This document shows positions 22,390 through 58,006 of a DNA stretch of 64,000 nt, in pieces. The stretch is from Acidobacteriota bacterium (lineage in GTDB: Bacteria; Acidobacteriota; Holophagae; Thermotomaculales; Thermotomaculaceae): assembly GCA_013151025.1 (NCBI GenBank), contig JAADJC010000061.1:25419-89418 (forward strand), written 5' to 3'. A program made the position numbers and the translations under genes. How positions within the stretch are numbered: the stretch's first letter is position 1; every line of letters starts with the position of its first letter. Under the pieces are notes generated by a model. It made no database searches, was not told the origin of the DNA, and was given only the letters and a program-made list of their open reading frames with translations.

Positions 22390-22487
22390 GGAAGCGAATG
22401 GGGGCTGGTGTCTCCCCCGGTCTTCAAAACCGGTGGGCCTTTGCGGAAGTAAAGGTCGGTGGGTTCGATTCCCACACGCTTCCGCCA
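22390..22487 (+). tRNA. selC: tRNA-Sec (anticodon TCA), CCA encoded
   Basis: GGAAGCG.../...CGCTTCC-G-CCA acceptor. 6-bp D stem with a 4-nt TGGT loop. Anticodon loop CTTCAAA. Long variable arm (GGCCTTT...AAAGGTC). T arm GTGGG-TTCGATT-CCCAC. 98 nt. Confidence 0.85.
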
Positions 22488-34279: not shown

Positions 34280-34537
34280 ATGAACAAAGAAAAAACAAAC
34301 CTCGAAGAATTTGAAAAATTGAAAGAACAACCGGTCATCTTATTTCACGGCTTCTCCGGTGAACAACTCAACGCCCTGATTGACACACTGAAGCACTCCC
34401 CTGCGTTCGCCGGCAATATCATCATGGCCACTACAACCCCGACATCTGTCCAATGGCGCATAAAAGATCTTCTCCTTGAACTTTCAGAAGAACGTGCCGC
34501 TCTGAAAAAACTGAACCAAACGCGCGAAGACCAGTAG
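34280..34537 (+). CDS. Small DUF3783-like protein
   Basis: ILFHGFSGEQLNALIDTL...TTPTSVQWRIKDLLLELSEERAAL resembles the DUF3783 C-terminal pattern (recalled, not searched). Confidence 0.5.
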   Translation: MNKEKTNLEEFEKLKEQPVILFHGFSGEQLNALIDTLKHSPAFAGNIIMATTTPTSVQWRIKDLLLELSEERAALKKLNQTREDQ

Positions 34538-34560
34538 GGGCCGGCAGACTCGGATTCCCA

Positions 34561-34603
34561 CGGCGTATTGCGCCGGATGATAGATGTTGAGTGTAAGGTG
34601 GAA
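34561..34603 (+). repeat. Gene-end hairpin plus heptads
   Basis: CGGCGT-ATT-GCGCCG lies 23 nt after the stop, then GATGATA GATGTTG AGTGTAA GGTGGAA. Confidence 0.75.
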
Positions 34604-34656
34604 GAAAAATCGGAAAAATAAGAAAAGGATGTATCTTTTACATCTCTGGCATTTCT

Positions 34657-34701
34657 CATCTAACATCTTCCATCTACAATCTAACACCCCACCTTTGGTG
34701 G
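34657..34701 (-). repeat. Inverted partner: heptads plus CCACC-TTT-GGTGG hairpin
   Basis: CATCTAA CATCTTC CATCTAC AATCTAA then the hairpin at 34689-34701. Together with 34561-34603 it brackets a central GATGTA-TCTTT-TACATC hairpin (34628-34644). Confidence 0.7.
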
Positions 34702-34716
34702 CATGTCCGCCATCCC

Positions 34717-34742
34717 TCAATTCCGTTCAGAAACGGAATTGA
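34717..34742 (+). repeat. 11-bp perfect hairpin, copy 2 (TCAATTCCGTT-CAGA-AACGGAATTGA)
   Basis: See 12544-12569. Stem positions 8-9 are swapped together with their pairing partners. Confidence 0.8.
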
Positions 34743-34766
34743 AAAAACACCGGAAAGAAAAAGGAA

Positions 34767-34805
34767 AAATCAGAGGATGGCCCATTAACAGGTCATTTCC
34801 CCACC
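34767..34805 (+). repeat. Diverged AAATCAG...TTTCCCCACC module
   Basis: The termini of the module are conserved. The internal stem is replaced by ATGGCC/GGTCAT. Confidence 0.5.
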
Positions 34806-34921
34806 AAGTACCCGATTTCGAAGCTGTCCATCCCGGTTATTTTTCCTGCCAGTCTTTACTTTTTCAGGCCCGCTTTTTCCTTTCCTGCTTTTCTTCTCCA
34901 CTCTTTTTCTGTCCTTTGTAT

Positions 34922-34977
34922 CTTTTCTGACCTTTGTGGCCTTGTGACTTTGTGTTAAGTTCTGCTCTGCTTCTCTG
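34922..34977 (+). repeat. CTTTGTG-type octamer word array
   Basis: TTTTCTGACCTTTGTGG...CTTTGTGTTAA recurs as the reverse complement of 57901-57965 (identical blocks of 17 and 11 nt). Confidence 0.75.
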
Positions 34978-35134
34978 ATTCTCTCCCTCTGTGCCCTCTG
35001 TGTACTCTGCGGTGAAAATTCCTATCTTTTTTCCTCTTTCCCGACATCGCTGACTTTGTCTTATTGACTGGTGGAAACTATTCAACCACTTGCCCGTATA
35101 ATTTAATCGGATTTGAAAATTCCGGAGGGAGCCA

Positions 35135-36181
35135 TTGAAAAAAACTGTTGTTCTATTACTTATCGCAATTACAGCCCTATCAATTTCCTGTTCAATTAAT
35201 TTTAAGAGCGGAGACAAAGACAAGAAAAAAGACAAGAAAGAAATCATTGTCCCTGTCCGGGTGGAAACTCTTAAGAAAGGCCCGATTTCATCCTTTATTC
35301 TGTCATCCGGTACAGTTGAAGCGGAAATGAGCGTGGATATTGTGGCTGAAACTGCCGGAGTGGTGGAAAAACTCAACGTAGAAGAAGGGGACAAAGTCAA
35401 AAAGGCACAAGTACTTGCTGTGGTTAACTTTGAAGAGCTGAATCTCAGCAAAGATAAAGCGGAAGTCGCTCTGAAAGAGGCGGAGAATACATTCAAACGT
35501 ACGAAAAACATGTTTGACCGCCAATTGGTCAGCCAGGAAGACTATGACAACGCCCGATTCAACTATAACCAGAAAAAACTCGACTTTGATAATGCCAGGG
35601 TAAAATTCAACAAGAGTATGATCAAAGCACCTTTTCCCGGTATCGTTACCGAACGCTTTATAACAGCGGGGCAATTTCTTACCATAAACCAGAAAGCATT
35701 CTCGCTTGTAAACAGAGATGTACTGAAGGTTAACGTGTTTATTCCGGAAGAACGGGTCAGAGAGTTGAAGACAGGAATGTCGGCAAACCTTATCAGCGAA
35801 GCGGCAAAACAAACCTTCAAAGGTAACGTAAAGCGAATTTCCCACGTGGTAGACCCTTCCACCGGTACTGTAAAAGTCACCGTCTATATCAAACATGATT
35901 CGAACATCCGACCCGGAATGTTCGTAAAAGTGAGACTTTTAACCGACACCATTCAGGATGCCCTGCTGGTTCCAAAAAAAGCAGTGGTTTACCAGAATGA
36001 CCGGCAATTCATCTTTATATACGATGCACTTACCCACAAAGCAAAGAAAGTGGAACTGAAAACAGGGTATCAGGATGAAGCATTGTTCCAATCCCTGAAT
36101 AAGGATCTGAAACCGGGAGACCGGGTTATTGTAGCCGGCCAGAACGGACTGAAGGATGGCGCAAAGGTCAGGTTGGGCTGA
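35135..36181 (+). CDS. RND efflux periplasmic adaptor (HlyD/MFP family), lipoprotein
   Basis: TTG start with a GGAGGGAG SD. Lipobox LSISC. Barrel-sandwich/hairpin pattern, and PFPGIVTER. Confidence 0.85.
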   Translation: MKKTVVLLLIAITALSISCSINFKSGDKDKKKDKKEIIVPVRVETLKKGPISSFILSSGTVEAEMSVDIVAETAGVVEKLNVEEGDKVKKAQVLAVVNFEELNLSKDKAEVALKEAENTFKRTKNMFDRQLVSQEDYDNARFNYNQKKLDFDNARVKFNKSMIKAPFPGIVTERFITAGQFLTINQKAFSLVNRDVLKVNVFIPEERVRELKTGMSANLISEAAKQTFKGNVKRISHVVDPSTGTVKVTVYIKHDSNIRPGMFVKVRLLTDTIQDALLVPKKAVVYQNDRQFIFIYDALTHKAKKVELKTGYQDEALFQSLNKDLKPGDRVIVAGQNGLKDGAKVRLG

Positions 36182-36182
36182 C

Positions 36183-39100
36183 ATGACAGAGCATTCCGTG
36201 TTTGGTATTACTGTCCGGCGGCCCGTGGCAATTTTCATGATTGTCATTGCCATTGTGGTTTTCGGCTATGTCTCCTACAAGAGATTGGCACTGAACCTTA
36301 TGCCGGATATCAGTTATCCCACAATCACTGTGCGGACCGAATTTGAAGGGGCAGCTCCGGAAGAAGTTGAGAACAATGTTTCCCGGCGGGTGGAACAAGC
36401 CCTGGCGGTTGTAAACAACCTGGCCACCATCAGTTCCATCTCCAGAGCCGGCATATCTGATGTCATCCTTGAGTTTCGTTGGGGAACCGATATCAACACC
36501 GCCATCCAGGACATACGGGAAAAGCTGGATCAGGTTTTTCTACCAAAAGACGCTGGAAAACCTGTCATCCTGCGTTATGATCCGACATTGGACCCCATCC
36601 TCACCTTCGGCCTCACTTCAAAAAAAGAAAGTTTGATGTACCTGCGAAATTTTTCTGAAGATAATATCAAAATCCGTCTGGATAAAATTCAAGGGGTCGC
36701 GGCGGTTAAAATTCGGGGCGGCCTGGAAGAAGAATTCCATGTGGACATCAACCCGTCCAAATTAACCAGCCTGAACATGGATATCGCTACGGTGAACAGT
36801 CGTCTGGCCAGCGAAAACATAAACCTGGCCGGTGGAACATTGAAAGAAGGCGCAACTGAATATATTGTTCGAACTGTCAACCAATTCCAGAATCTGCAGC
36901 AAATCAGCAACCTCATTGTGGGAACTACCAATGGAGTTGATATTCGGATAAAGGATATCGGCCAGGTTACGCGATCGTTTAAGGACCGGGAAGTTATTAC
37001 CCGTATCAATGGCAGGGAATGTGTCATTCTTGAAATCTACAAAGAAGCAGATGCAAACATTGTGGATGTGGCCAAACGGGTAAAGTTTCAACTCCTCACC
37101 ACAAAGGGGAAAACCATCCGGACATCTCTCCCGGAACATATGAAAGTAAATTTACTTTCCGATCAATCCGTCTTTATTGAAAATGCCCTGAATGAAGTTA
37201 AAAACAACGCTCTGGAGGGTGCAATACTGGCAATTCTCGTCCTTTTTCTCTTCCTGAAAAATATCAAATCAACGCTCATTGTCTCCGTTACCATCCCGTT
37301 GTCCATTGTCACCACATTCGCATTCATGAAATTCTTCGACGTATCATTAAACATTATGTCCCTGGGTGGTATCGCATTGGGGGTCGGTATGCTTGTGGAC
37401 AATGCCATTGTGGTTCTGGAAAGTATCTTCCGATGTCAGGAAGAAGGGGATAAAATCGTAGATGCTGCGGTCCGTGGCACTTCTGAAGTGGGTACGGCCG
37501 TTATTGCCTCCACATTGACCACAATTGCCGTATTCTTCCCCATCGTCTTCGTGGAGGGTATAGCAGGACAAATTTTCAGGGACATGGCCCTCTCCGTCGT
37601 GTTTGCCCTGATTGCATCCCTGATGTTCGCGCTGTTTTTCATCCCCATGCTGGCATCCAGAAAATTCGCCACAGGTAAAACTGCGGATTTCAAGCTTAAG
37701 GCTTCATTGATCCATTTCCAGTCCTTTGCCGGATTTACCGATCCCCTCCCACAAAACTTACTGATGAAAGTGTTCTCAATTCTGTTTCGAGTGATCAGAC
37801 TCTTGTTCTATTTTCCCATGGAGATAATTGGGAAAATATTCGTGCTGATTTATCTGCTCCTTCTTGCAATCGTATGGGTCAGCCGCATTATCTGGAATTC
37901 ACTGGACCAATACTTTCTAAATATGATACTCACTACTTTTAACAACGGGTTCAATTGGGTGCAGTGTGAATGGTACCCGAAAGCCCTGAAGGCCGTAATG
38001 AGTAAGAAACTACTTTCCGTTATCTTGATTCTGGCCGCATTTGCAATTACATTTTTCTCATTTCGAGGACTGGACGCCGAGTTGATTCCCGTCATGCACC
38101 AGGGCCAATTCACCGTAATTGTGAATTTTCCGGTTGGCACACCCATTGAAAAAACAGACTCCCTTCTCAAACCCTATGAATCAAGGTTGTCTGAGATTAA
38201 GGAAATCCGCACCTACTTCACCCGCATCGGAGTGGAAAAGAATTCCTACGCAAAGGCGGATGAAGGAGAATTTTCCGCAAGAATCGGAGTGATTTTGAAA
38301 CCCACTGACAACCTTCTCAAAAGTGAACAGGACACGATTGCCCAAATCCGGAAAATCTTCAGCGGTATCCCAGACGCTGAAATGCGGGTGGAATATCCCA
38401 CCCTGTTCACCTTCAAGGCCCCGGTTGAAGTGGAAGTGCATGGATACAATCTTCAGAAACTGAAAAAATACTCCATGCTCGCATTGGAGAAAATGAAAGA
38501 AATTCCCGACCTGAAAGATATAGAATTAAACATCCGCACCGGGAACCCGGAAACCCAGATTATCTTTGACCGGGACAAACTGGCCAGGCTGAATCTGAAC
38601 ATCGTCAAAGTGGCAGACTTAGTCAGAAACCAGCTTTTAGGCTATGTTCCCACGCGGTTCATCCGGGGTGATAAACGCATCGACATTCGGGTTAAACTGA
38701 AGAACAACACAAATAAGACACTGGAAGACCTGAAAAACATCGTGATCAATCCGGGTCAGAAACCCGCAGTTCCACTCTCCGCAGTGGCGGCATTCAACGT
38801 TGTGGAAGGACCCAGTGAAATTCGCCGGGTGGACCAGCAACGGGTGGGTCTTATCTCCGCCAACGTAACTGGTCTTGGCCTAAAAGCTCTCTCAAAAGAA
38901 ATTCGGGTAAAGCTATCTGCCATTCCTCATCCATCAGACATTGAATTCTTAATCTCCGGCCAGAATCAGGAAATGGAAAAATCCTCCAACTCTCTTCTCT
39001 ACGCTTTGCTGCTTTCCATCTTCCTGGTGTACATTGTTATGGCATCACAGTTTGAATCACTTCTCCATCCCTTTGTCATCATGTTTTCAATTCCCCTGGC

Positions 39101-39509
39101 ATTGTTTGGAGTGGGAATCACTCTCTACATCCTCCATATCCCCATGTCGGTCATTGTTTTCATCGGCCTGATGATGCTTGCCGGTATTGTAGTCAATAAC
39201 GCCATTGTGCTCATTGACTACATCAACCTTTTGAGAAAACGGGGAATGGAGCTGAGAAAAGCAATTCTTCTTGCGGGACAGGTCCGGCTTCGTCCCATTA
39301 TCATGACCACTTTAACTACAGTTCTGGGACTGCTTCCCCTTGCCATGGGACTTGGAGAAGGCGCGGAAATCCGCCAACCCATGGCAATTACCGTAATTGC
39401 CGGATTGATCTTTTCTACCGTTCTTACCCTTATCGTCATCCCCACTCTCTATGAACTGGTAGAGGAGACAAAAGCAAAACTATCCGGCACCCCGCACATG
39501 GAGAAATAG
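36183..39509 (+). CDS. RND efflux inner-membrane transporter (AcrB/HAE family)
   Basis: ~1100 aa, 12 TM, two large periplasmic loops. GGIALGVGMLVDNAIVVLE and MLAGIVVNNAIVLID motifs. Confidence 0.92.
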   Translation: MTEHSVFGITVRRPVAIFMIVIAIVVFGYVSYKRLALNLMPDISYPTITVRTEFEGAAPEEVENNVSRRVEQALAVVNNLATISSISRAGISDVILEFRWGTDINTAIQDIREKLDQVFLPKDAGKPVILRYDPTLDPILTFGLTSKKESLMYLRNFSEDNIKIRLDKIQGVAAVKIRGGLEEEFHVDINPSKLTSLNMDIATVNSRLASENINLAGGTLKEGATEYIVRTVNQFQNLQQISNLIVGTTNGVDIRIKDIGQVTRSFKDREVITRINGRECVILEIYKEADANIVDVAKRVKFQLLTTKGKTIRTSLPEHMKVNLLSDQSVFIENALNEVKNNALEGAILAILVLFLFLKNIKSTLIVSVTIPLSIVTTFAFMKFFDVSLNIMSLGGIALGVGMLVDNAIVVLESIFRCQEEGDKIVDAAVRGTSEVGTAVIASTLTTIAVFFPIVFVEGIAGQIFRDMALSVVFALIASLMFALFFIPMLASRKFATGKTADFKLKASLIHFQSFAGFTDPLPQNLLMKVFSILFRVIRLLFYFPMEIIGKIFVLIYLLLLAIVWVSRIIWNSLDQYFLNMILTTFNNGFNWVQCEWYPKALKAVMSKKLLSVILILAAFAITFFSFRGLDAELIPVMHQGQFTVIVNFPVGTPIEKTDSLLKPYESRLSEIKEIRTYFTRIGVEKNSYAKADEGEFSARIGVILKPTDNLLKSEQDTIAQIRKIFSGIPDAEMRVEYPTLFTFKAPVEVEVHGYNLQKLKKYSMLALEKMKEIPDLKDIELNIRTGNPETQIIFDRDKLARLNLNIVKVADLVRNQLLGYVPTRFIRGDKRIDIRVKLKNNTNKTLEDLKNIVINPGQKPAVPLSAVAAFNVVEGPSEIRRVDQQRVGLISANVTGLGLKALSKEIRVKLSAIPHPSDIEFLISGQNQEMEKSSNSLLYALLLSIFLVYIVMASQFESLLHPFVIMFSIPLALFGVGITLYILHIPMSVIVFIGLMMLAGIVVNNAIVLIDYINLLRKRGMELRKAILLAGQVRLRPIIMTTLTTVLGLLPLAMGLGEGAEIRQPMAITVIAGLIFSTVLTLIVIPTLYELVEETKAKLSGTPHMEK

Positions 39510-39582
39510 GGGTTGGAAGCAGAAAAATCAGGGATTTAGTTAGGCCTGCTCTGGTTTTATATGAACATACACCTTCCTCAAA

Positions 39583-39606
39583 GCGGGGACAGATATCTTC
39601 TGTCCC
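39583..39606 (-). repeat. GGGACAGA-loop-TCTGTCCCCGC hairpin module (inverted copy)
   Basis: 8-bp stem at 39586-39606. The reverse complement ends in ...TCCCCGC like the other copies. Confidence 0.6.
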
Positions 39607-39719
39607 ATCTCTTTCCCCACCAATTACACACGATGCCTTCATTGCAGACACAAATCACGGCGGCGGCTGCGCTGCAGCCACTGCTTGCCAATTACCGCAA
39701 TTCATTCTATGATAGACAT

Positions 39720-40916
39720 ATGAACGGATTTAATCTGAAAGTCATGGCGGCATGGATTTTCTTTTCCGCTTTTGTCATCATATCGGTCTATATCATTGTA
39801 ATCAAGAAACTAAAGCGGGTGGTACGTAGAGAAGGGGAACGGGAAGCACCGGATTTTGTCCTTGAAAATATCCGCCACACTCTGGATCAGCGGAAAGCAC
39901 TCTTCCATGAGCTGGAAGTCCGGGAAAAACTAAATGAAATTGTTCTGAACAACCTCGCAATCGGTGTGGCTGTTTTCGACAAATTCAAACTTCTTAAATC
40001 TGCTAATCCCATGTTCCGAAAATTGTTCCACTTGTCAGAGCAGAACATGAATCAATCCATTGTTCAGTTCCAGAAGCCAAGCCCTGAGCTTTTCCAGTTT
40101 GTTCGGGAGTTAAAGAACACCGGAAGCGGGAAAGATCAGATTGACCAGACTTCAGTACGAGGGAAAATCATAAAATTGCACGCTACACCGGTCAGAGAAC
40201 TTCTCGGCGGGAAAGGCGGATACCTTGTACTTGCTGAAGATATTACAAATATCGAAGCGGCAAAAAGTCAACTGGAATTGAAGAAACGACTGGAAATCAT
40301 CGGAGAAATGTCTGCCGGGCTGGCCCATGAGTTTCGAAACGCCTTATCCACACTGAAAGGATACGCCCAGATGATAGAAAATGAGTCCCCTCCGTCACCT
40401 GTCGCGGAACATAATGCTCAAATTCTCTCTGAAGTGGAGGATATTAACAGCGTGGTGAATCAATTTTTACTCTATGCCAAACCGCTTCAGCCGAACCTGC
40501 AGATCATTTCAGGTACATCCCTCCTGGATGATATTTTAGATTCTTTCCCGGACATTCATAATGTTCTTGAGGTCCGGGTAATTCCTGAGGATTTATCTTT
40601 TAAGACTGATCGGACTCTGCTGAAGCAATGTCTGACAAATTTGATTCGAAACAGTCGGGAGCATCTCTCCCCAGATGGTATGATACATGTTCACCTGGAA
40701 AAACCGGGAAAGAATATCCGAATTACGGTACAGGACAATGGGTCGGGAATGGATACGACAACCCTGGAACATTCCCTGGTTCCATTTTATACTACGAGAA
40801 AAGACGGCACGGGGCTTGGCCTCTCCCTTTGTGAAAAGATTGTGTCCCGCCTGGGTGGAAGCATAAATATTGAGTCCGAACCCGGTGTGGGGACAACTGT
40901 GGTACTTACGTTATGA
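39720..40916 (+). CDS. Sensor histidine kinase (NtrB/AtoS-like)
   Basis: TM, PAS-like region, H box EMSAGLAHEFRNAL, N box, G boxes DNGSGM and GTGLGLS. The start is uncertain (ATG 39720 chosen because 39561-39719 carries repeat modules). Confidence 0.8.
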   Translation: MNGFNLKVMAAWIFFSAFVIISVYIIVIKKLKRVVRREGEREAPDFVLENIRHTLDQRKALFHELEVREKLNEIVLNNLAIGVAVFDKFKLLKSANPMFRKLFHLSEQNMNQSIVQFQKPSPELFQFVRELKNTGSGKDQIDQTSVRGKIIKLHATPVRELLGGKGGYLVLAEDITNIEAAKSQLELKKRLEIIGEMSAGLAHEFRNALSTLKGYAQMIENESPPSPVAEHNAQILSEVEDINSVVNQFLLYAKPLQPNLQIISGTSLLDDILDSFPDIHNVLEVRVIPEDLSFKTDRTLLKQCLTNLIRNSREHLSPDGMIHVHLEKPGKNIRITVQDNGSGMDTTTLEHSLVPFYTTRKDGTGLGLSLCEKIVSRLGGSINIESEPGVGTTVVLTL

Positions 40917-42223
40917 GTCGGATATTAATAATAGAGGATCGGGATTCCCTTCGCGAAATGCTGATAAAATTTCTCTCCGCTCACGAGGTACTCAGTGCCC
41001 CTTCTGCCGAGGAAGCCGAACCACTCCTTGTACACTATCCTGAAATTATACTCTGCGATTTGAAACTACCTGGTATTTCAGGTATTGATTTCATCCGGAA
41101 AACGGCAGGTGATTTCCCGGATACTCTCTTCATCATGATGACCGCCTTCGGGGACATCCCCACTGCTGTGGAGGCCATGAAGGCAGGTGCATACGAGTTC
41201 TTGCCAAAGCCGCTGGATCTGAATCACCTGTCCATTGTTCTGAAACGGGCAAAAGAGATACTGAGACTTCGCCGCATTGCCGCATCTGAATGCGACACTG
41301 TTATCGTAGGGGAAAGCCCCGCCATGATGGAAACACTGAAATTAGCCGCCAAAGTAGCCCCTTTAAATTGCTCCGTACTTTTAAGCGGAGAAAGCGGAAC
41401 CGGAAAAGAAGTTCTGTCCCGATGGATTCACAGCCACTCTCGAATGCGAAACAACACCTTCTGGGCATTGAACTGCGCAGCGATCCCGGAATCCCTCCTT
41501 GAATCAGAACTTTTCGGCCATGAACCCGGCGCGTTCACAGATGCAACACGACTGAAAAAAGGCTACTTTGAACTGGCGGAAGAATCCACTCTGTTTCTTG
41601 ATGAAATTGATAAAACAAGCCCGGCTTTTCAGGCAAAAATTCTGAGAACTGTGGATACAGGCGAATTTTACCGCCTGGGCTCCAACAAGGCATTGAAAAG
41701 CAATGCAAGGTTGATATTTGCTACCAACCGAAATCTGGAAGAACTGGCGTCTGCTGAAAATTTCAGGACAGATCTGTTTCATCGTATCAGTGCCTACACA
41801 ATAAGCATTCCACCCCTTAGAATGCGGCGTAAGGACATCCGGCTTTTAGCCGATCATTTTGCGGACAAGTTGGGACGGCAGATTACCGGGTCGTCCCTCG
41901 CACTCCCGAAATCTTCTGTTCAACTTCTGGAAAATTACCAATGGCCGGGAAACGTCCGTGAGCTTCGAAACACCATTGAGCGATGGGTCATACTGGGCAT
42001 TGACGGTACTTTCGGACCGGGCCGGACTACGAGCCAGGAATCCGGAACCTATATTGACTTTGAAGAGAAAAGCCATGGCGAGGTTCTTGGAGAACTGGAA
42101 GAAAAGCTGTTTCGTTATCAGCTTAAAAAACACAAGGGAAACAAGTTGGCTGCGAGCCAGGAACTTGCAATGAATTATAAAACCCTCCTTTCCAGACTGA
42201 AGAAACTGGGGATTCAAAAATGA
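40913..42223 (+). CDS. Sigma54-dependent response regulator (NtrC family)
   Basis: REC (CDLKLPG), AAA+ Walker A GESGTGKE, ESELFGHEPGAFTDA (variant of GAFTGA), and a C-terminal Fis-type HTH. Confidence 0.9.
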   Translation: MSRILIIEDRDSLREMLIKFLSAHEVLSAPSAEEAEPLLVHYPEIILCDLKLPGISGIDFIRKTAGDFPDTLFIMMTAFGDIPTAVEAMKAGAYEFLPKPLDLNHLSIVLKRAKEILRLRRIAASECDTVIVGESPAMMETLKLAAKVAPLNCSVLLSGESGTGKEVLSRWIHSHSRMRNNTFWALNCAAIPESLLESELFGHEPGAFTDATRLKKGYFELAEESTLFLDEIDKTSPAFQAKILRTVDTGEFYRLGSNKALKSNARLIFATNRNLEELASAENFRTDLFHRISAYTISIPPLRMRRKDIRLLADHFADKLGRQITGSSLALPKSSVQLLENYQWPGNVRELRNTIERWVILGIDGTFGPGRTTSQESGTYIDFEEKSHGEVLGELEEKLFRYQLKKHKGNKLAASQELAMNYKTLLSRLKKLGIQK

Positions 42224-43932
42224 CCGGATTACTTATGCTTCTTATGTTAAGCTATTGGCCCCTTCCCGCCGACTACGGCATCACAGGCACATTTATGGAA
42301 TACAGGAACCAGCACCTTCATGCCGGCTTTGACCTGTCCACCGACGGGGAAGTGGGTTTACCAGTGCGTTGTTTTGACAACGGCAAGATTGTGTTAATCA
42401 AGGTGCAAAAGCGTGGATATGGCAGAGTACTGTATATCCGTCACCCGAAACAGAAATTGGTATCTGTTTACGGACACCTCGATCGGTTCACGCCTCGTTT
42501 GGAAAGACTTGTTTCCCGATACAGCAAACTCCGCCATACCCGCTATCCCGGAACCATTGTCCCCAGTCATCCGATTTCCGTTCAAAAGGGCCAGATCATC
42601 GCTTACTCCGGTGAAAGTGGCGTCGGCTGGCCTCATCTGCATTTTGAATTGAGAAACCTGAACAATGAACCAGTAAATCCGACTGAATTCGGCCTATCCG
42701 TAACCGGGGATATCTCTGCACCTGAATTTCAATTTCTCAACATCTACCCCGAAACACCGTCAAGTACTATCAACGGTAATTGCGCACCGGCACGATTCCC
42801 CATTATACGCACAAAGAAAGGTGTTTTTACAACCCGGCCCTTCTCAATTACCGGACCCGTACTCATGTCGGTAACCATTCGGGATACAGACGGAAGAAAA
42901 GGACCACTGTCCGTTCATGACATCAACGCAACACTGAACCGGCGCCCTTTTTACCACTATCATGCCGATTTTTTTTCTTATGATCGGTTTAAGCGTTCCT
43001 CCGCTGTGTATGATCTTGGCAGAACACGCATCACCCCATCCACCTACAGCTTTAACCTCTTTCGCATACCCGGCTCCAACCTTCGCAGCCAGGAAGAGTT
43101 TCCGGCCACTTTTCAGAAAGGCCCGAACCAGATGCACATTTCCACAATTGATTTCAACCGACATAAAGCCGAATTTGAGTTCACCTTCAACTGGCAGAAA
43201 ATCTCCGGGAAACTCATTCGCCCCACAACATTCACGTCCTCTGCTTTGCTTCTGGGTAAACAGATTGTTCCCGCCGGAACAATTCAGTACCCAGTTTTTG
43301 TCCGAATCTCAGACAATACATGGACCGCAGCGCCCTATAACACCGTGCCGGCCGTCATATCACTTGGCGATATTTCCCTCAAAGCTACTGGCTATAACAC
43401 ATCGCCCAGATTGATTTATACACGTCAACTAACTTCCCTGCACCATGAAACAGGTTTGAAGGCAATACCAGACGCCGGTATAGAGATTCAACCAGGCCTT
43501 GTTTTTTTCTCACAGCTCGATCTTGCATTCCACTGGAAGAAAAGCGATCCCCGGATCGGCTGGTTCCGGTATGACACCGTAAAAAAGAAATGGAAATACA
43601 GAAAAACTGAATTGAATAATGCCAAAAACCGTGCAACTGCAAAAGACTTCAGAAGCGGTCGGTATGCTGTTTTTCTTGATACTGCCGCTCCGGTAATTCA
43701 CAAAAATCCCTACTTCTTTAGAAAGCGGGTTGCCTGGCATATCACGGATATCGGAAAAGGCGTTGATGACTCATCCATATTGATTTCAAGGGGAAAACAG
43801 AGCTGGAAGATGGAATATGATCCTGACCGGAAAATTGCCTGGACTGACCAAACCCTGAAAAAAGGGCGCTACAAGATTTGTGTTACAGATCTTGCCGGAA
43901 ATCGTTCGAGTTCTGTTGGCAGACTTCAGTGA
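42220..43932 (+). CDS. M23 (LytM-type) metallopeptidase domain protein with a ~400-aa C-terminal extension
   Basis: HLHAGFD and GESGVGWPHLHFELR motifs. 4-nt overlap with the response regulator gene. Confidence 0.8.
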   Translation: MTGLLMLLMLSYWPLPADYGITGTFMEYRNQHLHAGFDLSTDGEVGLPVRCFDNGKIVLIKVQKRGYGRVLYIRHPKQKLVSVYGHLDRFTPRLERLVSRYSKLRHTRYPGTIVPSHPISVQKGQIIAYSGESGVGWPHLHFELRNLNNEPVNPTEFGLSVTGDISAPEFQFLNIYPETPSSTINGNCAPARFPIIRTKKGVFTTRPFSITGPVLMSVTIRDTDGRKGPLSVHDINATLNRRPFYHYHADFFSYDRFKRSSAVYDLGRTRITPSTYSFNLFRIPGSNLRSQEEFPATFQKGPNQMHISTIDFNRHKAEFEFTFNWQKISGKLIRPTTFTSSALLLGKQIVPAGTIQYPVFVRISDNTWTAAPYNTVPAVISLGDISLKATGYNTSPRLIYTRQLTSLHHETGLKAIPDAGIEIQPGLVFFSQLDLAFHWKKSDPRIGWFRYDTVKKKWKYRKTELNNAKNRATAKDFRSGRYAVFLDTAAPVIHKNPYFFRKRVAWHITDIGKGVDDSSILISRGKQSWKMEYDPDRKIAWTDQTLKKGRYKICVTDLAGNRSSSVGRLQ

Positions 43933-57812: not shown

Positions 57813-57900
57813 ACAATCAGTTTACAGCAAAAGACCCCGAGCTTCAATTGGAGAAATGCCGGGAACCAGACCCACCGCTGAGTACGCCGAGGCCGCTGAG

Positions 57901-57965
57901 GAAGAAGAGAAGATCATTTAACACAAAGGCACGGAACCACAAAGGTCAGAAAAATAGGGGAAGAG
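57901..57965 (-). repeat. CTTTGTG-type word array (inverted copy of 34922-34977)
   Basis: The reverse complement reads TTTTCTGACCTTTGTGGTTCCGTGCCTTTGTGTTAA. Confidence 0.75.
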
Positions 57966-57984
57966 AAGTGATGAGTTCAAAAAA

Positions 57985-58006
57985 CACGGTAATGGCAAAC
58001 TCCGTG
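57985..58006 (-). repeat. Hairpin module copy with a covarying stem (CACGG-TAATGGCAAACT-CCGTG)
   Basis: Aligns to the reverse complement of the GGGAA...TTCCC module (AATGGCCAA loop and a ...GTGATT tail), but both stem arms are changed and still pair. Confidence 0.55.

Follow-up and report, generated by a model that had tools for sequence, protein, structure and literature searches.

A probable lineage-specific patchwork of dispersed repeats upstream of a short conserved promoter-like region before an RND efflux operon in an uncultured acidobacterial genus

The efflux spacer and its counterparts in relatives

The stretch of DNA analysed here, referred to as the window, covers 64 kb of one contig (C95:25419-89418) of an acidobacterial metagenome-assembled genome (MAG) of 2.6 Mb in 142 contigs, the nearest public relatives of which are MAGs that come from sediment of the Guaymas Basin and from groundwater of Crystal Geyser. 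We analysed a spacer of 597 nt (34538-35134) lying between two plus-strand genes, a DUF3783 gene upstream, itself preceded by an MFS transporter gene, and an RND pump operon downstream. A preliminary description of the window had called this spacer its longest gene-free gap, and this was found to be correct; the bigger apparent gaps contain open reading frames (ORFs) or tRNAs. The same description had proposed that the spacer was either a long structured 5' leader or small RNA (sRNA) locus controlling the efflux pump, or a hotspot where repeat modules accumulate. Our results argue for the second proposal. The spacer appears to consist of two parts that differ in age as well as in meaning, the larger of which is probably a lineage-specific patchwork of the dispersed intergenic repeats of the genus, lying upstream of a short conserved pump promoter, and not an RNA leader or sRNA.

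The gene order MFS-DUF3783-membrane-fusion protein (MFP), with MFPs that are 85-89% identical to that of the present genome, was found in five members of the genus, in which the corresponding spacers measure 96-100 nt. The spacer is 99 nt long in a sixth congener, represented by a metagenome contig, and about 95-100 nt long in two other genera of the family, a six-fold difference in length between species sharing the same genes. When eight orthologous spacers from three genera were aligned, only the last ~62 nt (35073-35134) of the present spacer could be matched with the others. The remaining ~500 nt (34538 to about 35040), hereafter the mosaic, was confined to this genome and was lacking in the six congeners and the two other genera. 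This comparison had been named beforehand as one part, beside transcription, of what could refute the preliminary description, and it found the mosaic absent in relatives with the same flanks. As the ~500 nt is present in this genome only, parsimony suggests that it was gained after the species split from the sequenced congeners. The last ~62 nt would in turn be the functional control region of the RND operon, retained from the ancestor.

The position of the spacer upstream of the pump, its local hairpins and two weak sigma-70-like matches at 34637-34680 are consistent with a leader or sRNA controlling the efflux operon. However, the mosaic is not conserved at the orthologous position in any of the six congeners and two other genera, and the sigma-70-like matches in the spacer (2 vs 1.2 +/- 1.0 expected) are no more numerous than chance would provide. 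No Rfam family was detected in the spacer at the gathering threshold, and at E <= 1 the only matches were two microRNA chance hits. The whole spacer also folded no better than shuffled sequences on either strand (z = -0.25 and -0.87). Moreover, the only promoter-like element that is conserved is situated downstream of the mosaic, which would leave the latter outside the 5' untranslated region (UTR) of the pump. A leader or sRNA is, on these grounds, very improbable, and this half of the preliminary proposal was not borne out. A hidden small gene or pseudogene was likewise rejected, as the five small ORFs of the spacer (52-215 aa) gave no credible Pfam match and tblastx of the unique middle segment found nothing.

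Repeat modules of the spacer and their dispersal

The features of the spacer and its flanks are collected in Table 1. Nearly all of those listed in the preliminary description were recovered, by direct reading of the sequence, where it had placed them, including the GC hairpin and heptads of module B1, the central hairpin, the inverted heptads with their hairpin, the 11-bp hairpin of module B2 and the TATAAT box.

Table 1. Features of the efflux spacer and its flanking genes (window positions; consensus sequences of module families are given without position)
Feature	Position	Strand	Sequence or content	Basis
DUF3783 gene	34280-34537	+	85 aa	Pfam PF12646, E 2.1e-15; congener orthologues in the same position
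Module B1	34538-34612	+	lead-in GGGCCGGCAGACTCGG, GC hairpin, four degenerate heptads, A-rich tail	nhmmer profile
B1 consensus			ACGGCGC-TTT-GCGCCG GATGTTA GATGTTG GGTGTTA GATGACA GAAAAATC; 88 copies	iterated nhmmer
Central hairpin	34628-34644	.	6 bp, GATGTA-TCTTT-TACATC, locus-specific	sequence reading
Module B1-inv	34655-34706	+	opposite-orientation heptads, then hairpin CCACC-TTT-GGTGG, then CATGTCCGCC	nhmmer
Module B2	34711-34760	+	CCCTCAATTC..GAATTGAAAAA, 11-bp hairpin and A-rich tail	nhmmer, E 2.6e-11
B2 consensus			CCGTCCCTCAATTCGATTCAGAAACCGAATTGAAAGAA..; about 13 distinct loci	iterated nhmmer
Possible decayed palindrome	34767-34805	.	GGGAA..TTCCCC	by eye only
Middle segment	34775-34905	.	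without copy elsewhere; second half opens the pyrimidine tract	blastn, tblastx
Pyrimidine-rich tract	34829-35040	+	about 77-78% C+T	
Module B3	34922-35019	+	92-nt unit: TTTTCTGACC, CTTTGTG 8-9-mer array, TTAAG, CT-rich linker, CTCTGTG/CTCTGCG nonamer array, GGTGAAAA	nhmmer, E 2.2e-16
B3 consensus			TTTTCTGACC (CTTTGTGCC)n TTAAATTC, CT-rich linker, CTCAGCG-NN-CTCTGCG-NN-CTCTGCGGTGAA; 41 copies	iterated nhmmer
Promoter-like element	35073-35102	+	GGAAAC (35073-35078), 16-nt spacer, CGTATAAT (35095-35102)	
Conserved block and Shine-Dalgarno	35105-35134	+	AATCGGATTTGAAAATTCCGG, then Shine-Dalgarno GGAGGGAG (35124-35131), TTG start at 35135	alignment
RND pump operon	35135-39509	+		Pfam HlyD_3/HlyD_D23; ACR_tran, E 2.5e-243
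MFP gene	35135-36181	+	TTG start	
AcrB-type transporter gene	36156-39509	+		

The mosaic begins directly after the TAG stop codon of the DUF3783 gene. The profile of module B1 matched the spacer at 34560-34611 (nhmmer, E 7.5e-13), a region composed of the hairpin CGGCGT-ATT-GCGCCG (34561-34575) and the heptads GATGATA, GATGTTG, AGTGTAA and GGTGGAA (34576-34603). Alignment of the B1 family showed that stem substitutions preserve the hairpin and that the indels by which copies vary are exactly 7 nt long, a pattern that slippage in heptad arrays would produce. The central hairpin that follows is not preserved as a hairpin in two related composites (on contig C124 and at G005:C80), and a hairpin-capable word stands at that place on C93. 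Further on, the inverted heptads CATCTAA, CATCTTC, CATCTAC and AATCTAA and the adjoining hairpin occupy 34657-34700. The module B1-inv, to which they belong, was matched by nhmmer at 34669-34705 (E 6.5e-10), and its heptads gave a weak minus-strand match to the B1 profile (E 0.0037 in a search of the spacer only). B1-inv is related to B1 yet a distinct module; it was also found on C124, C93 and C134 and at G005:C80, where module combinations differ from locus to locus. The left part of the spacer had been described as an imperfect palindrome of ~141 nt, and this holds for the two heptad arrays, which are inverted relative to each other; as a whole the palindrome is approximate only, the terminal hairpins being unlike. 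The left 156 nt folded better than 200 of 200 shuffles (z = -3.4).

Next in order, the hairpin TCAATTCCGTT-CAGA-AACGGAATTGA of module B2 (34717-34742) proved to covary, as the preliminary description had claimed. In 11 genomic copies 89% of cells were paired and three pairs were doubly changed, and the covariation score was reached by none of 500 shuffles. The proposed GGGAA/TTCCCC module beyond it was the one listed feature not supported: its resemblance to a palindrome of ~50 copies, CAGGGAATTGGCCAT..ATGGCCAATTCCCTG, is visible by eye only, and the profile of that palindrome gave no match in the spacer even with filters off. The adjacent middle segment of ~130 nt had no blastn or tblastx match in its own genome, and none in the genus or family.

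The pyrimidine tract noted at 34860-35040 is real (77.9% C+T). Of all 180-nt stretches in the window, the one starting at 34829 is the richest in pyrimidines, with 78.3% against a window mean of 52% (sd 6%). Tandem Repeats Finder (TRF) located 8-9-nt arrays at 34932-35009, and module B3 makes up the distal part of the tract. The strand asymmetry of the spacer has a simple cause, namely module orientation plus A/G-rich tails. Each module carries such a tail and the left modules lie mostly in plus orientation, which produces the purine/pyrimidine asymmetry of the plus strand, and the C+T content of the right part is due to the orientation of B3 and to the linker words upstream of it. Both the pseudo-palindrome on the left and the asymmetry would follow from modules sitting in both orientations. 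The modules appear to share a grammar, in which a short polar unit consists of a small hairpin or a phased array of 7-9-nt words followed by an A/G-rich tail.

A census of the module families was carried out in the genome itself with iterated nhmmer profiles, positions being scored as genic when they fell within ORFs of at least 110 aa. Three blocks of the spacer recurred in the genome at 70-90% identity (34560-34612, 34706-34767 and 34921-35017). Hits lay outside ORFs for 85/88 copies of B1, 16/18 of B2 and 36/41 of B3, as against 14% of random positions (86% inside). The orientation of modules relative to neighbouring genes was roughly 50:50, which points to a DNA-level element and argues against one acting at the level of the transcript. 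Copies generally lay near a gene end, at a median of 67 nt. The repeat families were present in all five congeners searched, very unequally (51, 32, 9, 5 and 3 blast hits), and none was detected in other genera of the family at the sensitivity of blastn. An 11-mer frequency profile was dropped, as it was not discriminating in this genome.

In the congeners G003 and G005, the nearest contig end was often no more than 100-300 nt away from a B1 or B3 copy. With many copies in such positions, the repeats evidently break short-read assemblies of the genus, and our counts of copies are minimum values. Assembly in this group does therefore suffer, and the mosaic could conceivably be an artefact of repeat-rich reads misjoined in the MAG. 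Against this, both flanks are syntenic with those of all relatives, the contig is 110 kb long, and the inner modules are so diverged (70-88% identical to others) that assemblers do not confuse such copies. We regard an artefact as the least credible of the explanations considered.

A second locus of the window, the region upstream of ruvB (57813-57990), follows the pattern of the pump spacer, with a conserved promoter-proximal block and species-specific repeat arrays upstream of it. The promoter-proximal ~60 nt are conserved in all congeners. Directly upstream of this block the present genome carries a B3 copy and G003 an (ACCCATC)n array; at the same spot AACTTAG-type arrays are found in G004 and G002, and none in G001. 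Relative to the contiguous empty site of G003, CACTTCTC|CAATTG, B3 at ruvB forms a discrete 112-nt insertion. TTCTC stands on both sides of this insert, which in this single comparison (G003 empty, this genome filled) might reflect either microhomology or a target duplication of 5 nt. At the pump spacer the ancestral sequence is too diverged for a target-site duplication to be judged. The description of the spacer as a hotspot where repeat modules accumulate was thus upheld, as the extra DNA is absent in relatives, its modules belong to dispersed families and the ruvB locus shows the same pattern.

The arrangement also bears on whether the extra DNA was acquired at once, as one composite mobile element or remnant of an insertion sequence (IS) or MITE (miniature inverted-repeat transposable element) of about 500 nt. 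A single insertion would explain why the extra DNA starts exactly after the stop codon, and sub-composites do recur in the same order, with B1, centre and B1-inv on C124 and with B1-heptads, centre, B1-inv and B2 at G005:C80 (73% identity). Yet the ~500 nt as a unit has no second copy in any genome searched and showed no terminal inverted repeats, its middle 130 nt are unique, module combinations vary by locus, and B3 alone constitutes the separate 112-nt insertion at ruvB. We consider a single insertion improbable, and suggest that the patchwork was gained stepwise.

The conserved promoter-like region

In the last ~62 nt of the spacer, GGAAAC and CGTATAA (35095-35101) are invariant in the eight orthologous spacers of the three genera. 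The TATAAT box noted earlier (35097-35102) lies within CGTATAAT, as the -10 element of this conserved promoter-like element, and CGTATAAT ends 32 nt upstream of the pump start codon. GGAAAC-N16-CGTATA is the classic pattern of sigma-W/sigma-E-type promoters, read by extracytoplasmic function (ECF) sigma factors, the family form of which is GAAC-N16-17-CGT. The spacer contains a -35 of the form GGAAC/GAAAC and a -10 of the form CGT(A/C), 16-17 nt apart and as far from the start codon as suits a promoter. Like sigma-W and sigma-E promoters, the element stands upstream of an envelope/efflux operon; it is invariant in three genera. This invariance, the CG before TATAA included, fits the ECF pattern better than that of an ordinary sigma-70 promoter, the -35 equivalent of which, GAAACT, matches at only 2/6 positions. 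On motif grounds, an ECF-type sigma factor is the likeliest reader of the pump promoter. It differs from a typical ECF promoter in that no cognate or autoregulated sigma gene was found and in that its -10 also reads as a perfect sigma-70 TATAAT.

Transcription is predicted to start near 35108-35110, which would give a leader of ~25-30 nt after the promoter, in which a strong Shine-Dalgarno sequence follows an imperfect inverted repeat that is conserved. The AATCGGATTTGAAAATTCCGG block and the Shine-Dalgarno GGAGGGAG are nearly invariant within the genus. The former (35105-35125) is an imperfect inverted repeat, CGGATT..AATTCCG, situated between the -10 and the Shine-Dalgarno and abutting the ribosome-binding site, and might serve as an operator or form a small hairpin in the 5' UTR.

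An autoregulated gene for the cognate ECF sigma factor was sought and rejected, none being found with the motif at a usable distance upstream. An ECF sigma gene at G000:C124:41659-42216, followed by a zinc-finger anti-sigma-like gene, does have a GAAAC-N16-CGTATT match, which ends 2 nt before the start codon and at that distance is too close for a promoter, unless the mRNA is leaderless. Elsewhere, intergenic GAAAC/GGAAC-N16-17-CGTAT matches were noted 29-72 nt upstream of genes at G000 C5:25061, C68:1088, C95:6885 and C59:2000; the genes behind them are lipoprotein-like, an ABC ATPase, a HAMP/SpoIIE-like phosphatase and a large peptidase-like gene. Genome-wide there were 39 motif matches vs 21 in the reversed control. 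The pump and these genes may share a regulon, although the matches are suggestive only.

The RND genes are followed on the same strand by genes for a histidine kinase and a sigma-54-dependent response regulator with receiver and AAA+ domains (39561-42223), and then by an M23 peptidase-domain protein (42220-43932). A sigma-54 promoter for the pump, considered in view of this regulator, was rejected, as the GG and GC are 19 nt apart and not 12, and TTGC is not conserved. Elsewhere in the window a tRNA-Sec gene (22390-22483) adjoins a cluster of three tRNAs, and the organism thus probably uses selenocysteine.

Origin of the mosaic and its relation to known repeats

The modules appear to behave as selfish or neutral DNA, which would insert and decay in the promoter-distal spacer and leave the promoter core untouched; the mosaic would then have no dedicated role in control of the pump. 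A different possibility is that it has been co-opted as a cis-element, its hairpins ending or stabilising the MFS-DUF3783 transcript and shielding a stress-controlled pump promoter, or its word arrays binding a modulating protein. B1 does start right at the stop codon, copies usually lie close to a gene end (the median of 67 nt above), hairpins are preserved by compensatory changes, and shuffled sequences fold less well than the left 156 nt. Congeners have only about 35 nt between the stop codon and the promoter -35 downstream of it, with no hairpin seen there, and read-through therefore seems likely in them. In E. coli, repetitive extragenic palindromic (REP) elements are reported to act on 3' UTRs in a context-dependent manner (bioRxiv 10.64898/2026.03.23.713779). 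Nevertheless, the modules are oriented without preference with respect to the genes beside them, which argues against a function in the transcript, and terminator-like sites in the spacer numbered 0 vs 1.5 expected. Six congeners, moreover, manage without the mosaic, and compensatory changes would be just as compatible with hairpins that a mobile element forms at the DNA level. Co-option thus appears unlikely, though less so than a single insertion.

Several points weigh against our preferred reading, that of a repeat patchwork in front of a short promoter. No contig of the same species or of an intermediate state was found, and an exact look-up of the DUF3783 protein returned no record; a single composite insertion and several insertions cannot for this reason be told apart. 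The contig comes from a MAG and the region is rich in repeats. The middle ~130 nt (34775-34905) belongs to no repeat family found. No mobilising enzyme was identified, and Y1 transposase genes are not distributed in step with repeat load. The mosaic may yield a transcript or influence regulation. As regards the promoter, the ECF assignment draws only on the motif and its conservation, the element may be a sigma-70 promoter with a perfect TATAAT and a poor -35, and of the eleven sigma-70 region-2 matches in the genome none (0/11) was preceded by this motif at a distance that a promoter could use.

The closest known analogues are the mosaics of REP units, or bacterial interspersed mosaic elements (BIME), and intergenic heptamer repeats (PMC2817692, PMC4679880, PMC4692102). 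REP/BIME are described in enterobacteria and pseudomonads as short palindromic units that are extragenic and, with linker motifs, form mosaics of alternating orientation measuring a few hundred bases (PMC2817692). Like them, the present families consist of short palindromes in many copies (B1 with 88 copies, B2 with about 13 loci), almost strictly extragenic, lineage-specific and variable in copy number. As in a BIME, B1 in plus orientation stands opposed to the inverted heptad unit, a layout also found in the C124 and G005:C80 composites. Unlike REPs, the units of the spacer are not bare palindromes of 20-40 nt; they combine a hairpin with phased 7-9-nt words and an A/G-rich tail. REP palindromes are described as ending in a GTAG or CGTC tetranucleotide tag (PMC3733652), whereas the B1 and B2 consensus sequences carry no such tag beside the stem.

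A further difference from REPs is the lack of a link to REP-associated tyrosine transposases (RAYT, Y1 transposases), a cognate gene for which, with repeats on its flanks, is a defining trait of REPs. The genome itself yielded fragmentary PF01797 matches only; two congeners, including the repeat-rich G003, yielded none, and a weak match only was obtained in the repeat-rich G005. The RAYT link was rejected, as the presence of PF01797 does not follow repeat load. A connection of the repeats with PF05635, a four-helix bundle of 23S rRNA intervening sequences (IVS), was considered and also rejected: none of the three genes in the genome lies beside a repeat copy, and the repeat-rich G005 and G194 have no such gene.

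The STRR of cyanobacteria are intergenic heptamer repeats. Heptamer repeats have also been described with the unit TAACTGA in Beggiatoaceae, Cyanobacteria and Bacteroidetes (PMC4679880) and with the unit GGGNATC in Xanthomonas and Nostoc (PMC4692102). The present modules resemble these STRR, TAACTGA and GGGNATC families in their tandem 7-nt words (2-6 units), their intergenic over-representation, their variable unit number and the lack of a known mechanism of spread; the spacer has four to five phased heptads, and copies differ by exact 7-nt indels. The known families are near-perfect repeats of a single heptamer, whereas the words here are degenerate, attached to hairpins and embedded in longer composite modules. 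TRF accordingly reported no period-7 array at a score of at least 30 in the spacer. With MITEs the modules share small size, lack of coding capacity and dispersed intergenic positions, and B3 at ruvB is a discrete insertion of 112 nt with TTCTC on both sides. In contrast to MITEs they lack terminal inverted repeats, as B3 copies are solo arms in this genome, with only 2/41 in inverted pairs, and the left pseudo-palindrome has unlike hairpins at its ends. No parent IS is known for B3, Y1_Tnp counts being the only look at transposase genes.

The nonamer array of B3 was followed into other genomes. The nonamer core CTCTGCG-NN-CTCTGCGGTGA, with two mismatches allowed, occurred in 170/301 sampled Acidobacteriota genomes, with a reversed control that was almost always zero. 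Copy numbers are patchy, reaching 198, 59, 45 and 42 in some Acidobacteriota genomes, and sister genera of the family have none. In other phyla the core was counted 8 times in Scalindua, 9 times in Thermodesulfobacteriota and 9 times in Binatia. In such genomes it usually forms palindromic elements of 70-130 nt, the arms of which are 2-3 tandem NNCGCAGAG around an AT-rich core; these elements end in TT(C/T/A)ACC...GGT(G/A/T)AA, and their NN positions are non-complementary between arms. Examples of copies in the present window are at 34985-35018 and 57869-57953. The CGCAGAG arrays of other taxa thus have inverted arms around an AT-rich core, whereas B3 here has one arm only. The PF01797 family was present in 7/13 genomes with high copy number of the core and in 4/13 with none. 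Plasmid collections gave no meaningful match to B3, and phage collections none to the palindromic nonamer element. Full-text searches of the literature returned papers on heptamer repeats, REPs and MITEs, and no description of CGCAGAG/CTCTGCG arrays or of repeats in Acidobacteria was found in them.

We tentatively raise the possibility, which we do not favour, that the nonamer array (CTCTGYG-NN repeats ending in GGTGAA) is a single arm of small palindromic elements that belong to a so far undescribed family spanning several phyla. The hairpin-plus-heptad modules of the genus seem to share a grammar with the nonamer elements, that of phased short words and a tail. The transposases of Mu and Tn7 recognise several subterminal sites. 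Were the proposal true, nonamer and hairpin-heptad repeats might have a common cause, such as a mobilising enzyme with several subterminal sites or a conserved or horizontally transferred DNA-binding protein.

For the locus itself the result is mainly a correction. The control region of the pump would be confined to the last ~62 nt of the spacer, and the other 500 nt would be no target in a search for a riboswitch or sRNA. For an uncultured acidobacterial genus without genetics, the spacer offers a clean natural example of repeats filling promoter-distal DNA with the promoter core intact. The tendency of these repeats to break assemblies of the group also matters for the quality of its MAGs. 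If a cross-phylum family does exist, whatever spreads or binds it would define a new kind of small bacterial repeat beside REPs, MITEs and heptamer repeats.

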